A DNA stretch of 28,749 nt from a virus. Its lineage: Duplodnaviria; Heunggongvirae; Uroviricota; Caudoviricetes. Each line of letters starts with the position of its first letter. The stretch's first letter is position 1. Under the pieces are notes generated by a model, which had not been told where the DNA came from, did no database searches, and worked only from the letters and a program-made list of their open reading frames with translations. The DNA lies in IMG/VR virus record IMGVR_UViG_2925914267_000002. The stretch is one strand, 5' to 3'. This document shows, in pieces, positions 6,037-23,382 of this stretch. A program made the translations under genes and the position numbers.

Positions 6037-6094
6037 AAAAACGGCGGCAGAGCAGTCACGGAGTAAAACTGATACCGCCAAACGTCACCAGAAA
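6037..6094 (-). ncRNA. dicF: DicF small regulatory RNA, with terminator U-tract
   Basis: Minus-strand sequence TTTCTGGTGACGTTTGGCGGTATCAGTTTTACTCCGTGACTGCTCTGCCGCCGTTTTT matches the DicF sRNA as I recall it. Lies between the ydfA-like genes and dicB as in K-12 Qin; 3' GC-rich stem plus U-run. Confidence 0.75.
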
Positions 6095-10084: not shown

Positions 10085-10435
10085 TTAAGTCTGAGCCTCA
10101 CTCTCTTGGCCATAAGTGGCTTGCCAGTATCTCGCCGTAGGGTTCATTAGAATGTGCAATACAAGCCACCATGCAAAAATGCAGGGAGGTTGATTGTAGT
10201 AACCGGCAGGCACATATCCGTGAGCTAGTTGATTTCGTAAATCACCATAGATTTTATCTACCAGTAAGGCCTGAAGATTGCCAATTATGTCTACGCCGAA
10301 AGCTTCAATAATCAGTGGATTATCTAGTAATCCCTTGAGTCCATTTCGCTCTTGCGAACCGTCCCCGTGAAGCTGCGATGGTTCCTCACCTTTAATTTTA
10401 GCCACATATCTCAGACTATTTTCGATCTGGGGAAT
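10085..10435 (-). pseudogene. C-terminal part of an IS629-disrupted large gene; carries a HEPN-type R-x4-H-G motif
   Basis: Continues in frame from the 11746-13185 ORF once IS629 and one AAT repeat are removed (junction ...CHVLI-PQIENSLRY-VAKIKGEE...). Contains DLRNQLAHGY. Confidence 0.6.
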
Positions 10436-10489
10436 TGAACCGCCCCGGAAATCCTGGAGACTAAACTCCCTGAGAAAGAGGTAAACAGG

Positions 10490-10816
10490 ATGACTAAAAA
10501 TACTCGTTTTTCCCCCGAAGTCCGTCAGCGGGCGATTCGTATGGTTCTGGAAAGTCAGGATGAATATGACTCACAGTGGGCGGCAATTTGTTCCATTGCC
10601 CCAAAGATTGGCTGTACGCCGGAGACTCTGCGTGTCTGGGTTCGCCAGCATGAGCGGGATACCGGGGGCGGTGATGGTGGGCTCACCAGTGCTGAACGTC
10701 AGCGTCTGAAAGAGCTGGAACGTGAAAATCGTGAACTGCGCCGCAGTAACGATATCCTTCGCCAGGCTTCCGCTTATTTTGCGAAGGCGGAGTTCGACCG
10801 CCTCTGGAAAAAATGA
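10490..10816 (+). CDS. IS629 transposase OrfA
   Basis: 108-aa [26 protein letters not shown]..., typical IS3-family OrfA. Confidence 0.9.
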
Positions 10817-11703
10817 TGCCACTGCTGGATAAGCTGCGTGAGCAGTACGGGGTCGGACCGGTATGCAGCGAACTGCATATTGCCCCGTCAACGTATTACC
10901 ATTGTCAGCAACAGCGACATCATCCGGATAAACGCAGTGCCCGTGCGCAGCACGACGACTGGCTGAAGAGAGAGATACAGCGCGTATACGATGAAAATCA
11001 TCAGGTGTACGGTGTGCGTAAAGTCTGGCGTCAGTTGTTACGGGAAGGAATCAGGGTAGCCAGATGTACAGTGGCGCGCCTCATGGCGGTTATGGGACTT
11101 GCCGGTGTTCTCCGGGGTAAAAAGGTCCGCACTACCGTCAGCCGGAAAGCCGTTGCCGCAGGCGACCGCGTAAACCGTCAGTTTGTGGCAGAACGACCTG
11201 ACCAGCTGTGGGTGGCTGATTTTACTTACGTCAGCACATGGCAGGGCTTCGTCTATGTGGCGTTTATCATTGATGTGTTTGCCGGATACATCGTGGGGTG
11301 GCGGGTCTCATCGTCTATGGAAACGACATTCGTGCTGGATGCGCTGGAGCAGGCGTTGTGGGCCCGTCGTCCGTCTGGCACCATCCATCACAGCGATAAA
11401 GGCTCTCAGTATGTGTCACTGGCCTATACGGAGCGACTAAAAGAAGCCGGATTACTGGCATCAACAGGGAGTACAGGCGACTCGTATGACAACGCGATGG
11501 CTGAGAGCATCAATGGTCTTTACAAAGCGGAGGTAATACACCGTAAGAGCTGGAAAAACCGTGCAGAAGTGGAACTGGCCACACTAACGTGGGTGGACTG
11601 GTATAACAATCGACGATTGCTGGGAAGGCTGGGCCATACTCCTCCGGCAGAAGCAGAAAAAGCTTATTATGCTTCCATCGGAAACGATGATCTGGCAGCC
11701 TGA
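10813..11703 (+). CDS. IS629 transposase OrfB (DDE domain)
   Basis: 296-aa ORF overlapping orfA (ATGA); DDE-type motifs [25 protein letters not shown]. Confidence 0.9.
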
Positions 11704-11745
11704 GTTCACAGATAAAACACTCTCCAGGAAACCCGGGGCGGTTCA

Positions 11746-13185
11746 AATCAACACGTGGCATGCCGTCATAAAATCTCCATTGAAACCGCAAACCATACCC
11801 TTGATGAAAAACTCTTCATGCCCAAACGGGATGAAGGGATGATTGATGAACATATCGCGAAAAAACGCCTCCGAGATTGGATATTTCATTGTGATCTCAT
11901 CTGTAGCAGGAATAATTTGCCCAGCTACTGCCAACTCATGGTCGATACGCATTCTCGTCATCATTATGGGCCAAATAACTGCCCCATTTGCATCATCAAT
12001 CCCCAATCCTGCGGGTATGTGAGCAAGTGTCATTCCCTCATGATCAATATGTGTTGATCCAAACATCCAAGCTATGCTGTTGGCCTTTTGTTCTATTGCT
12101 TGAGCCTTAAGTCTCTCAATGCTGGTTGGCCGACAGACCAGCATCGCAAGTCTGAAAACCATATCAAACAAATCTCTTCCGACTACCCGACTCTTGGCTT
12201 GATGGACAATCTCACTAATATCTTGAGGGGGAGACTGAAGGATAGACATCTGGTGACGGGATTCGATTTGGTAATCACGCATTTCTTCATACAGCGCAAG
12301 ACGTTCTATTCGGGTTCCTGGAATATTAGCCAGTGCTTCAATAGCATTCTGCATGCAGGCTGCCGAAATCATACCGCCATCTTGGAATTTTGACTCTTCC
12401 AGATGTGTATCGGCAAGAAGCCGCCAGAATTCAAACTGTGTATCTCTGTCACAGCACCTATTCGCAATCGGGATTGCGGTTTTACAGGCATCGACGGCAA
12501 ATGAAAATAATTTTTGAGCCAGATAGTTTTTTGTCAGAAACAGGAGTTCCTGGGCAATAAAAGATGGCTCACTCACTTTACAGTCGATATCGAGTTGCAG
12601 GAGTCGCAGCGGATAAGGTGAATCGCCTTGTTCTCTGGTACGTTCATACTCTGCTAGTAGATGTGCCGAAAGCTGATCAAATTCATCCCTGAAATCAGTA
12701 TTCTTTCGAAAAAAACAACACAGCCTAAGCGCACGCTCTAGGCGTTCTAAAGCACTAACCCACGTCCCTTGCGATGTCATAATAGCTATACTGGACGCAT
12801 AATAAGCACGGACTGCCAGCAAAGGAAAACGGATTCCACCAATTTTACGAACCCAAAGTGTATCAGCAATACGAGCTTGAAGTTCGGGTAGCTCTATCGT
12901 CGGGCAAAATTGAGAAAGTACCTCCAGCGACAACCCGTTAATGTCATCCGGAATTGCAGATCTACCTTGGCTGCTTTGAAAGCACGGACCAAATGGTACC
13001 TGTGGATTTTCGGGACGAAAGTGAAAACCGCAAATATGGGTTAGCAGTCTTATCTCCGCTCTTCCATCACCTAGGCTAGAAAGATACTTTGTGATATCAA
13101 AGCAGGTAACTGGCAGCTTACTCTGGATTAAGGGGGATAAATCAATAGTGTTAAGTTCGTCGAGGCTGATATTAATATCGTCCAT
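11746..13185 (-). pseudogene. N-terminal 480 codons of the IS629-disrupted HEPN-motif gene
   Basis: The 480-aa track ORF ends on a stop codon located inside the IS629 right end (11743-11745), so the native reading frame continues beyond the IS. No NTPase motif seen. Confidence 0.6.
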
Positions 13186-13859
13186 GTCGTCACCTTGATG
13201 ATTTGTTAATGCGGGGGCAACATTAATAAATGTACTTGAGACCGCAATTTGTCGATGGAGCCAACATTTATAACTATGTGCTTCTACCCTCTGAATTTTT
13301 ACATGTGAATTGCTAGCTTGAATAGCTCTATCATTATATACGTGGCACTAAATTATGGCTGTTTTTCGCTCAAAGCGGACTAGAAGGTTAGCTTGTGTCG
13401 GACTTTGCGTATTAAAAGAAGTGCTGGTGGTGACTAGTGGTTGTGCCCCATTTCCACAGAAAAAATCAGAGAAACTATACCCAATAGTTGTATTGAATCA
13501 CTGACGAGACAGCCTCATATTCATCAGGACTGGTCTACGTCCAATACAGGAGGTTGTGGTGCTGGTTCTCAAATGTGCGCTGGCTATTACGGCTGTAATG
13601 GCGATTTATTGTCTTGCTATTGTTCTTATGGATCGCCTTTCTGACTGATTTCATATTGGCGAGGTAACGGTAGTTAAGTAGAATGGCTGCGGGTGCTTGA
13701 GGCTATCTGCCTCGGGCATGAACACCAAAGGCAGATAGAGAAAAGCCCCAGTTAACATTACGCGTCCTGCAAGACGCTTAACATTAATCTGAGGCCAATT
13801 TCATGCTAGACACATGTAGGTTAGCCTCTTACGTGCCGAAAGGCAAGGAGAAGCAGGCT

Positions 13860-14015
13860 ATGAAGCAGCAAAAGGCGATGTTAATCGCCCTGATCGTCAT
13901 CTGTTTAACCGTCATAGTGACGGCACTGGTAACGAGGAAAGACCTCTGCGAGGTACGAATCCGAACCGGCCAGACGGAGGTCGCTGTCTTCACAGCTTAC
14001 GAACCTGAGGAGTAA
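13860..14015 (+). CDS. hokD: Hok-family type I toxin (HokD/RelF-like)
   Basis: 51-aa product MKQQKAMLIALIVICLTVIVTALVTRKDLCEVRIRTGQTEVAVFTAYEPEE from ATG 13860 (RBS AAGGAGAA); single TM helix; matches HokD/RelF as I recall it. An in-frame ATG at 13803 extends the frame by 19 codons. Confidence 0.9.
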   Translation: MKQQKAMLIALIVICLTVIVTALVTRKDLCEVRIRTGQTEVAVFTAYEPEE

Positions 14016-14083
14016 GAGACCCGGCGAGGGAGAAATCCCTCGCCACCTCTGATGTGGCAGGCATCCTCAACGCACCCGCACTT

Positions 14084-14114
14084 AACCCGCTTCGGCGGGT
14101 TTTTGTTTTTATTT
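14084..14114 (+). terminator. Rho-independent terminator at the 3' end of the hok transcript
   Basis: CCCGC-TTCG-GCGGG hairpin followed by TTTTTGTTTTTATTTT. A second hairpin (CGAGGGAGAAATCCCTCG, about 14030-14048) lies just downstream of the hok stop. Confidence 0.6.
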
Positions 14115-14231
14115 TCAACGCGTTTGAAGATCTGGACGGTGCCGGAATAGAATCAAAAATACTTAAGTAGCGCGCAGGGATAAGAGGGATGGTCCCTTAA
14201 AGGGGAGAGCTAATTATCCGGAAGGATTCTG

Positions 14232-17279: not shown

Positions 17280-17579
17280 AAAAATTCCTTAATACTGATA
17301 ACTTGGCGCACTATACACACGTTCCTGAAGAAAGCTATAGTTTTTTGATGGGGTTGAAGATGGCTGGATGTCTAAAATAAACATTGCTTCATATGTTCAA
17401 CTATGCGTTAATGATTGCGTCGGTTTGAAGAACAGACGATATACGAAGTAGTTTACTAAAGCAGTTCTCATTTCAGGTGTTATTCACTTATTCCTTCTTT
17501 GAGTCTCTCCAATTAAGTACGAAGTCGTTTCTGTTATGCAAACCATTTATGCCGAAAGGCTCAAGTTAAGGAATGTAGA

Positions 17580-17795
17580 ATGTCAAATAAAATGACTGGT
17601 TTAGTAAAATGGTTTAACGCTGATAAAGGTTTCGGCTTTATTTCTCCTGTTGATGGTAGTAAAGATGTGTTTGTGCATTTTTCTGCGATTCAGAATGATA
17701 ATTATCGAACCTTATTTGAAGGTCAAAAGGTTACCTTCTCTATAGAGAGTGGTGCTAAAGGTCCTGCAGCAGCAAATGTCATCATTACTGATTAA
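17580..17795 (+). CDS. cspB: Cold-shock protein CspB
   Basis: 71-aa [74 protein letters not shown]; about 300-nt leader region shared divergently with cspF. Confidence 0.9.
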
Positions 17796-18075
17796 AATTC
17801 ATCGCTCGTCTGTATACGATAACGAAGAAGGCTGATGCCTGAGTAGAGATACGGACAGAGTAGTGAATATTGGATCTCTTTAATAAAAAGTAAGGAGGTC
17901 CAATACATGAAACAATGGCTAGCATATTTGGCAAAATCTTAATCAGGAAAAGTATGCTAACCATTGTGGTGAAGTGCAGGTTTGCTGCATGAATAGTTTT
18001 ACAGCAGAAGCTAACTGCTGGCATGGCAAAACAAAGTGCGTAAGTGGATGACTCCCACAAAAAGCACCACAATCT

Positions 18076-20102: not shown

Positions 20103-20465
20103 GGTAATATTAAATCGGAACATTTACATCGCGGAATGTAAAATTTAAATAAAAAGGACTCTTCCATGAGCCAAAATTCCTGAAATCTTAAGGGTAAGAT
20201 AAAAGGTCTTAATCAGAATGACACGTTTTATTAATAAATAAAGCTATTCTTTCATTGCTGTGTTTTTCTTTACAAAAGTAATCCTTGCTATGGGTGGTTA
20301 ATCATGCGTTAATGGTGTTCTGGTTTGTTACAAATTTATCTGAAGCAGTCATTGTTATAATTTTATTATTTGTACCTCTTGAGATTTCCTTGTTGGTTTT
20401 TCTCTCTGATATTTTTTTTTCGGACCATTCTGCCCAAGGGCTAATTTCTTCAAAAGGTAATAATT

Positions 20466-20678
20466 ATGTCTAACAAAATGACTGGTTTAGTGAAATGGTT
20501 TAACCCTGAAAAAGGTTTTGGTTTCATCACGCCGAAAGATGGCAGCAAAGATGTGTTTGTCCATTTCTCAGCAATTCAGAGCAACGATTTCAAAACATTA
20601 ACTGAGAATCAGGAAGTTGAATTTGGTATTGAGAACGGACCTAAAGGTCCTGCCGCTGTTCATGTAGTGGCGCTTTGA
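20466..20678 (+). CDS. cspI: Cold-shock protein CspI
   Basis: 70-aa [73 protein letters not shown]; long leader (20103-20465). Confidence 0.9.
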
Positions 20679-20711
20679 GGTAGACAATATTACAAACCAT
20701 ATTCACTTTAG

Positions 20712-22807: not shown

Positions 22808-23382
22808 TGGCATTCAGAATGAGTGAACAACCACGGACCATAAAAATTTATAATCTGCTGGCCGGAACTAATGAATTTATTGGTGAAGGTGATGCATATA
22901 TTCCGCCTCATACAGGTCTGCCAGCAAACAGTACCGATATTGCACCGCCAGATATTCCGGCTGGCTTCGTGGCTGTTTTCAACAGTGATGAGTCATCGTG
23001 GCATCTCGTTGAAGATCATCGGGGTAAAACGGTTTATGACGTGGCTTCCGGCGACGCGTTATTTATTTCTGAACTCGGTCCGTTACCGGAAAATGTTACC
23101 TGGTTATCGCCGGAAGGGGAGTTTCAGAAGTGGAACGGCACAGCCTGGGTGAAGGATACGGAAGCAGAAAAACTGTTCCGGATCCGGGAGGCGGAAGAAA
23201 CAAAAAACAACCTGATGCAGGTAGCCAGTGAGCATATTGCGCCGCTTCAGGATGCTGCAGATCTGGAAATCGCAACGGAGGAAGAAATCTCGTTGCTGGA
23301 AGCATGGAAAAAGTATCGGGTATTGCTGAACCGTGTTGATACGTCAACTGCACAGGATATTGAATGGCCAGCACTGCCGTAG
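22807..23382 (+). CDS. tfaQ: Tail fibre assembly protein (Tfa)
   Basis: 191-aa ORF; start overlaps the stf stop (TAATG); Tfa-like sequence and position. Confidence 0.85.

Follow-up and report, generated by a model that had tools for sequence, protein, structure and literature searches.

Does the hok gene of a Qin-like lambdoid prophage stand alone as an orphan toxin, or is it part of a regulated type I toxin-antitoxin module? The question is raised by a 28,749-nt stretch of Caudoviricetes DNA (IMGVR_UViG_2925914267_000002; hereafter the window, meaning the whole stretch that was analysed), in which a first-pass annotation recognized a toxin gene of the HokD/RelF type, remarked on the absence of the relBE genes that accompany hokD in Escherichia coli K-12, and regarded the locus as an orphan whose toxin might be unregulated or silent. 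Comparison with annotated relatives indicates that positions 13656-14110 very probably constitute a complete hok/mok/sok module of the hokD/hokW lineage. Modules of this kind are already known, this form is widespread in E. coli, phage records already annotate it, and current knowledge of hok/sok biology is unchanged by the present locus. Most E. coli genomes have the full module, but their annotation marks only the toxin coding sequence and leaves mok and sok unmarked, so that a module under full regulation can look like an orphan toxin to readers who rely on it.

The toxin gene and its K-12 counterpart

Two features define the translated part of the toxin gene:

13860-14015, plus strand: hok toxin ORF (HokD, 51 aa), identified by Pfam PF01848, by DNA identity to K-12 hokD and by the RefSeq name hokD
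13845-13850, plus strand: hok Shine-Dalgarno (SD) sequence AAGGAG, overlapping the sok -35 element of the opposite strand

The toxin ORF is confirmed by the list of open reading frames and by its match to the Pfam family Hok/Gef (PF01848; E = 1.2e-23, 82.9 bits against a cut-off of 22). K-12 HokD, a peptide encoded by DNA identical to that of the window, has been used as a toxic control (bioRxiv 10.1101/2025.08.07.668861), and through this identity the window's Hok is predicted to be toxic as well.

Alignment of the K-12 Qin prophage with the window reveals identity from position 13846, 14 nt before the hok ATG, into rem, interrupted only by two mismatches in the 3' untranslated region (UTR), and no similarity upstream of 13846. 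The identical stretch covers the hok SD, the coding sequence, the 3' UTR with the fold-back inhibitory element (fbi) and the terminator, and the downstream genes rem, ydfU and Q are common to both loci. In K-12, relB-relE is fused 14 nt upstream of the hok ATG of hokD (relF), whereas the window is without relBE. The K-12 locus keeps the hok SD, the coding sequence and fbi, the last as a partnerless relic, but it is devoid of the hok promoter, tac, ucb, the mok start, the Sok target and sok, all of which the window has. Since homology begins 14 nt before the hok ATG, K-12 carries the rearranged form, from which the leader has been lost. Passages in papers citing Pedersen & Gerdes 1999 likewise describe K-12 hokD as inactivated by rearrangement (PMC12214031; PMC7232551).

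The two forms differ in frequency among 5426 complete E. coli genomes. When leader types were counted by coverage of at least 80% of positions 13640-13859, the window-type leader was present in 4232 genomes, whereas the K-12 relE-hokD junction occurred in 1201 of the same set. The K-12 locus against which the toxin gene had been judged is thus a derived, minority state, and a misleading hokD reference because its copy is truncated and fused to relBE. A 601-bp region of the window is 100% identical to chromosomal loci of many E. coli genomes, where the sole annotation is 'hokD'.

The absence of relBE itself was correctly observed. Neither blastn nor tblastn detects a relB or relE match, as DNA or as protein, anywhere in the window, which therefore holds no relB-relE-hokD operon of the K-12 type. 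Because relBE is a separate type II system and does not serve hok as antitoxin, the toxin is not orphaned by the lack of it.

Control elements of the module

The elements that would govern the messenger are, in order along the plus strand:

13656-13684, plus strand: predicted hok/mok mRNA promoter from a consensus scan, with -35 TTGGCG (13656-13661), a 17-nt spacer and -10 TAGAAT (13679-13684)
13691-14107, plus strand: predicted full-length hok/mok mRNA of ~417 nt, its 5' end placed by the start of the RF01794 match and by family alignment, its 3' end by the terminator
13691-13702, plus strand: tac (translational activator element), GGGUGCUUGAGG, predicted partner of fbi in the full-length RNA and of ucb once the 3' end is trimmed
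13703-13738, plus strand: upper part of the tac-stem, CTATCTGCC...GGCAGATAG, indicated by folds and by covariation columns 15/63 and 21/57
13743-13749, plus strand: ucb (upstream complementary box, a mok anti-SD), AAGCCCC, predicted partner of the mok SD in the full-length RNA and of tac in the trimmed RNA
13791-13794, plus strand: mok SD sequence GAGG, masked in the full-length fold
13803-14015, plus strand: mok reading frame, 70 aa, in frame with hok and with a common stop codon
13806-13812, plus strand: loop of the mok initiation hairpin in the trimmed RNA, CUAGACA, which opens with the YUNR motif CUAG and is complementary to the 5' end of Sok
13824-13828, plus strand: dcb (downstream complementary box), GCCUC, pairing with the mok SD region in folds of 13691-14060 and 13786-13832
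14023-14044, plus strand: 3'-UTR hairpin, GGCGAGGGA-GAAA-UCCCUCGCC, from the fold
14065-14077, plus strand: fbi, forming 12 pairs with tac, with C14071 bulged
14084-14110, plus strand: intrinsic terminator, a hairpin (14084-14101) followed by a T run

A whole-window scan places a match to Rfam RF01794 at 13691-13865 on the plus strand, spanning model positions 1-157 of 157 with a score of 118.3 bits against a gathering score of 59 (E = 1.1e-26). RF01794 is named 'sok', but, judging by strand and extent, what it describes is the leader of the hok mRNA between the 5' end and the hok start codon, and not the antisense RNA; the end-to-end match thus indicates that the family-defining leader is present in full. 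The -10 element and start region of the hok/mok promoter align with those of hokC, hokB and hokW, and the mRNA is predicted to begin at G13691. Leader bases 13691-13750 fold with z = -5.5. The hairpin at 13703-13738 that had been reported in the presumed leader is real and correctly located, though its stem comprises 10 bp in the minimum-energy fold instead of the 9 bp described. The account of the 3' end, with two hairpins, a terminator and an fbi-like position, also holds: the hairpins lie at 14023-14044 and 14084-14101, and fbi (14065-14077) is complementary to the 5' end of the mRNA. Regarding the loop of the mok initiation hairpin, the role of the U-turn (YUNR) motif was reportedly treated by Franch and colleagues in 1999.

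The ATG at 13803, with GAGG at 13791-13794, had been described as a mok-like arrangement made peculiar by its sharing the hok frame. The start codon is present and opens a 70-aa ORF that runs to the hok stop, and its offset of 57 nt from the hok ATG puts mok and hok in the same frame. The arrangement is mok-like, but its frame is no oddity, given that annotated mokC/hokC of K-12 and mokW/hokW of VT2-Sakai likewise have a 57-nt offset and a common stop codon; MokD of the window is identical to annotated MokW at 65/70 residues and to annotated MokC at 51/70. Across the hok family the mok frame is not fixed in the sequences compared. The offset is 58 nt, and hence out of frame, in hokB/mokB and in two P1-like or plasmid copies, while mok ends after 17 codons in phage PhiR12_3. 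In plasmid R1, the mok ATG (116-118) and the hok ATG (174-176) are likewise 58 nt apart and out of frame (PMC9841398). This variability fits the published view that it is the act of translating mok that matters, not the product of mok (PMC9841398). In-frame loci could possibly also yield a 70-aa Mok-Hok isoform with an activity of its own.

The opposite strand carries the antisense gene:

13741-13811, minus strand: predicted Sok gene ('SokD'), 71 nt, transferred from annotated sokW and supported by the sokC alignment
13818-13846, minus strand: predicted sok promoter, with -35 TTGCCT (13846-13841), a 17-nt spacer, -10 TAACCT (13823-13818) and +1 at 13811

By homology, a cis-encoded Sok gene with its own promoter thus lies over the mok start. 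The -10 element sits six bases before 13811, and the 3' end of the gene would fall at 13735 if the end of K-12 sokC were adopted. The predicted SokD RNA comprises a 15-nt single-stranded 5' tail complementary to 13797-13811, spanning the mok AUG, followed by a long hairpin and a U-rich tail (-28.7 kcal/mol, z = -5.1). A literature search for the names 'sokD' and 'mokD' returned unrelated words only.

Mapping of tac, ucb, the Sok target and the sok promoter had been proposed as a check on the locus, and all of these can be placed. The window has the full set of control elements known from the family, and alternative folds are predicted for them. It could still be argued that hok has lost its control partners and is either expressed with no antitoxin to check it or has fallen silent by decay: RefSeq shows the hokD coding sequence alone, with nothing under the leader, and the window is without relBE. 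This is most improbable. The type II system relBE was never hok's partner, the control elements are complete and align with the whole length of the family model, and homology to annotated sokW and sokC places the sok gene and its promoter; the elements in question have been lost in K-12, not in the window. At the level of sequence, with the mok and sok elements mapped, neither the description as an orphan nor that of a possibly unregulated or silent toxin finds support.

Predicted folding of the hok/mok RNA

The unconstrained minimum-energy fold of the full-length RNA (13691-14107; -176 kcal/mol) is closed between its 5' and 3' ends, with 13691-13702 paired to 14065-14077 and the mok SD (13791-13795) paired to 13745-13749. 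An R1-type hok mRNA folded in the same way as a positive control adopts the same tac-fbi and ucb-SD architecture and reproduces the alternate pairing pattern of ucb. The tac-fbi duplex has a predicted energy of -21.5 kcal/mol, which was reached by 9 of 2000 shuffled 3' UTRs. When the RNA is trimmed to 14060, a tac-ucb stem forms instead (13691-13698 with 13743-13749), and the mok SD pairs with 13824-13828 in a hairpin whose 7-nt loop is CUAGACA. The minimum-energy fold of RNAs trimmed to 14064 or 14068 stays closed and switches only at ~14060, and the fold analysis accordingly supports a switch without locating the processing site. The three G's of the mok SD have unpaired probabilities of 0.00-0.01 in the full-length RNA, compared with 0.11-0.20 in RNA trimmed to 14064.

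In the nascent RNA, tac is predicted to be held in a metastable hairpin (13693-13703 with 13709-13719), and the fold of the first 32 nt (-18.8 kcal/mol, z = -5.4) sequesters it. Together, the local folds of the metastable hairpin, the tac-stem and Sok have z values of -5.1 to -5.5. The tac, fbi, ucb, dcb and metastable elements were defined for R1 (PMC9841398), and in silico folding reproduces the R1 model for the window mRNA.

Covariation was sought among more distant relatives. Scanning viral contigs with the 70-aa Mok-Hok as query returned 80 loci, all 94-100% identical, which served to show the pattern of substitutions but are too alike for covariation, and annotated phage, plasmid and K-12 relatives were therefore used instead. 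The consensus fold of eight hok leaders recovers the tac-stem, with three pairs (in the hairpin or the enclosing stem) changed on both sides. Compensated changes between tac and fbi are seen relative to both hokB and R1. In hokB, tac position 7 changes from U to C while its ucb and fbi partners both change from A to G, and tac position 12 changes from G to A with a C-to-U change in its fbi partner.

Taken with the R1 model, these predictions outline how the module would operate. A constitutive promoter would give rise to the ~417-nt hok/mok mRNA, in which tac would be held in the metastable hairpin for as long as transcription proceeds. In the finished mRNA, tac would pair with fbi and ucb would mask the mok ribosome-binding site; with this site masked, the full-length RNA would be inert and unable to bind Sok. 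Slow trimming of the 3' end would then remove fbi, allowing tac to pair with ucb and the mok start to refold with dcb. The trimmed RNA would meet one of two fates: either short-lived Sok binds through its free 5' tail and the RNA is destroyed, or, once Sok has decayed, mok is translated and hok with it by coupling. Hok would subsequently enter the inner membrane, and the cell would be killed or lysed. For the window copy, we infer transcription, processing, Sok action and biological role from its sequence and from its relatives.

Relatives, probable role and prophage context

The closest characterised relative, by sequence, is the hokW-mokW-sokW locus of the Stx2 phage VT2-Sakai (Sp5) of E. 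coli O157:H7 Sakai, with 366 of 390 positions identical from the mRNA +1 to fbi. Both loci have a 169-nt leader, an in-frame 70-aa mok and an extended Sok hairpin, both lie in lambdoid prophages, and the VT2-Sakai record annotates mokW (70 aa), hokW (51 aa) and sokW at equivalent positions. The two sequences are identical from 13810 to the hok ATG, including the sok promoter region, and differ by six substitutions in the region of the Sok 5' tail and mok start. They diverge upstream of the -35 element and past fbi, such that the terminators differ, and their neighbouring genes are different. The Hok proteins agree at 47 of 51 residues, the four differences falling in the C-terminus (TAYEPEE in the window, VDYESEK in HokW). 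Between the predicted SokD and sokW there are seven differences, six of them in the 5' tail, and the function of sokW is consequently not simply transferable to SokD. The Sok target changes along with the tail, because the two are specified by opposite strands of one DNA segment.

Two further systems share the plan of the module. K-12 hokC/mokC/sokC (gef) resembles the window in the order of its elements, in the in-frame 57-nt mok offset and in the shared stop codon, and annotated SokC aligns to the minus strand of the window with its 5' end, GGGUGCUUGAGGC, conserved; in contrast to the window's Sok, SokC is 59 nt long and without the 18-nt hairpin extension. IS186 lies just past the hokC stop codon in K-12, and no genuine fbi was found downstream of it; an 'fbi' reported there by the duplex search was rejected as a chance match, given the position of IS186 directly past the stop. 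Plasmid R1's hok/sok system (parB) shares the window module's regulatory logic and minimum-energy architecture, and its Hok matches that of the window at 28 positions of a 54-column alignment. Unlike the window, the R1 system is plasmid-borne, with plasmid stabilisation demonstrated, and its mok is out of frame.

Experimental work on hokW-sokW offers the most direct guide to function. Northern blots detected the sokW RNA, and antitoxin activity was lost in a promoter mutant and partly regained when sokW was provided in trans (PMC8621323). The locus acts as a toxin-antitoxin system of type I and aids the release of Sp5: after mitomycin C the sokW RNA is gone, HokW, in a manner that depends on RecA, appears in the inner membrane ~1 h ahead of the endolysin, and deletion of hokW-sokW halves phage release (PMC8621323). 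Control of hok by Sok and activation by 3' processing have thereby been partly shown for a locus 94% identical to that of the window (PMC8621323). The window module lies between replication-region genes and the rem, ydfU and Q genes of a Qin-like lambdoid prophage, a placement resembling that of hokW-sokW in Sp5. By analogy with the behaviour and prophage position of hokW-sokW, the window most likely holds a regulated module that would be triggered once Sok is no longer made, and its likeliest roles are help with lysis on prophage induction, as for hokW-sokW, or retention of the prophage.

Within the lineage, the role documented best is assistance with lysis upon induction; retention of the prophage and exclusion of phages are also candidates. 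That the module serves mainly for defence or retention, through abortive infection or the killing of prophage-free cells, and not as a lysis helper, is possible but somewhat unlikely. R1 hok/sok lowered the plating of T4, according to a report cited in PMC8621323, and the VT2-Sakai record carries the note 'prophage maintenance'. Against this, no enrichment of hok beside defence systems was found (bioRxiv 10.1101/2025.08.07.668861), and roles in defence or retention would in any case be compatible with help in lysis.

The copy might alternatively be intact yet physiologically inert, being transcribed and repressed, never firing under natural conditions and persisting by hitch-hiking with the prophage. 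Such inertness has been proposed for chromosomal hok loci: the sequence-intact hokA, hokB and hokC reportedly produced neither post-segregational killing nor activation by rifampicin (summarised in bioRxiv 10.1101/2025.08.07.668861). In addition, a neighbouring gene of the window's prophage is disrupted by an insertion sequence. Activation of the 94%-identical hokW-sokW on induction, with an approximately two-fold effect on phage yield (PMC8621323), speaks against inertness, as does the pattern of variation among 31 near-identical variants: tac is invariant, and fbi varies only at the bulge (14071) and by a C-to-T change at 14076 that keeps a G-U pair. We consider an inert copy unlikely, and a module that fires on loss of Sok remains the preferred reading.

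The disrupted neighbour had been described as a HEPN gene interrupted by IS629. The disruption is evident, a gene for a DUF7380/DUF4209 protein being split by an IS3-family element; Pfam gives only DUF7380 and DUF4209 for this protein. Near-identical copies of the inserted element are annotated 'IS3-like element IS1203 family', and the name IS629 fits by way of IS1203, which we take to be an IS629 isoform. With this insertion next door to the module, the host prophage may be non-inducible or defective.

One further feature concerns Sok. The predicted SokD hairpin is extended by ~18-21 nt relative to SokC, SokB and R1 Sok, and the extension is common to SokW and several relatives, while a prophage 'gef' copy with an identical HokD protein is without it. 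It is conceivable, if quite doubtful, that the hokD/hokW lineage carries a lineage-specific Sok, with a longer terminator hairpin and a fast-diverging 5' recognition tail. Such a Sok, if real, could make the hok modules of co-resident prophages mutually orthogonal and alter the lifetime of Sok.

The leader and the Sok antisense RNA

The Rfam family named 'sok antitoxin' (RF01794, a 157-position model) matches the leader of the hok mRNA in the sense orientation (window 13691-13865). If annotation were to follow the family name alone, the antitoxin would be placed on the wrong strand.

The predicted antisense gene, SokD (13741-13811, -), differs at 7 of 71 positions from the annotated SokW of the Stx2 phage VT2-Sakai (370-440 in L087, the sequence carrying that annotation). 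Six of these seven differences fall within nucleotides 3-16, which span the unpaired 5' tail plus the stem's first position, and this divergence could confer separate specificity on each module. The hairpin of the RNA contains an insert:

13760-13778, 18-nt insert in the Sok hairpin, with its own small stem (GCGTC/GACGC)

On the hok mRNA, the hairpin sequence with this insert doubles as the site that Sok targets. The insert is common to the window, hokW and the P1-like and PhiR12_3 copies. It is lacking in hokC, hokB and R1, and also in the PPompW 'gef' prophage copy (L089), where the encoded HokD protein is identical to that of the window.

The mok frame among relatives

The position of the leader ATG relative to that of hok varies among related copies. 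In the R1-type hok of an IncFII plasmid (L005), the leader's first ATG is positioned 57 nt 5' of the hok ATG and in frame with it, giving 71 aa; for R1 itself, published positions imply 58 nt between the mok and hok ATGs (PMC9841398). The P1-like and pH8 copies likewise have a 58-nt offset between the leader ATG and the hok ATG, and mok of PhiR12_3 ends after 17 codons. As read from these sequences, the mok frame switches between close relatives. Within hok, the Tyr47 codon TAC and the following G form TACG (window 13998-14001).

A small ORF upstream of the hok promoter

The hok promoter is adjoined on its upstream side by a short hydrophobic ORF:

13559-13648 (+), 29-aa ORF, VLVLKCALAITAVMAIYCLAIVLMDRLSD; GTG start at 13559, Shine-Dalgarno AGGAGG at 13548-13553

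It is uninterrupted in all 32 viral-contig relatives that have the region (11 nucleotide and 9 protein versions), with one variant group, represented by two protein versions, using an ATG start and being one codon shorter. A Pfam search with the ORF returned no match, and it is unannotated in nearly all of the ~1000 E. coli genomes that have the region. It may represent an unannotated small membrane protein.

Prophage setting and the interrupted neighbour

The window has further Rfam matches that exceed the gathering score, and these are consistent with a Qin-like lambdoid prophage:

6042-6093 (-), DicF sRNA
17419-17811 (+), cspA-type thermoregulator leader
20319-20705 (+), cspA-type thermoregulator leader
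23150-23348 (+), IS009

The DUF7380/DUF4209 gene (about 10085-13185), which is unbroken in strain D2 (595 aa), is interrupted in the window by an IS3-family element, near-identical copies of which carry the annotation 'IS1203 family'. Within this element lies one further feature:

10771-10887, ALIL frameshift pseudoknot
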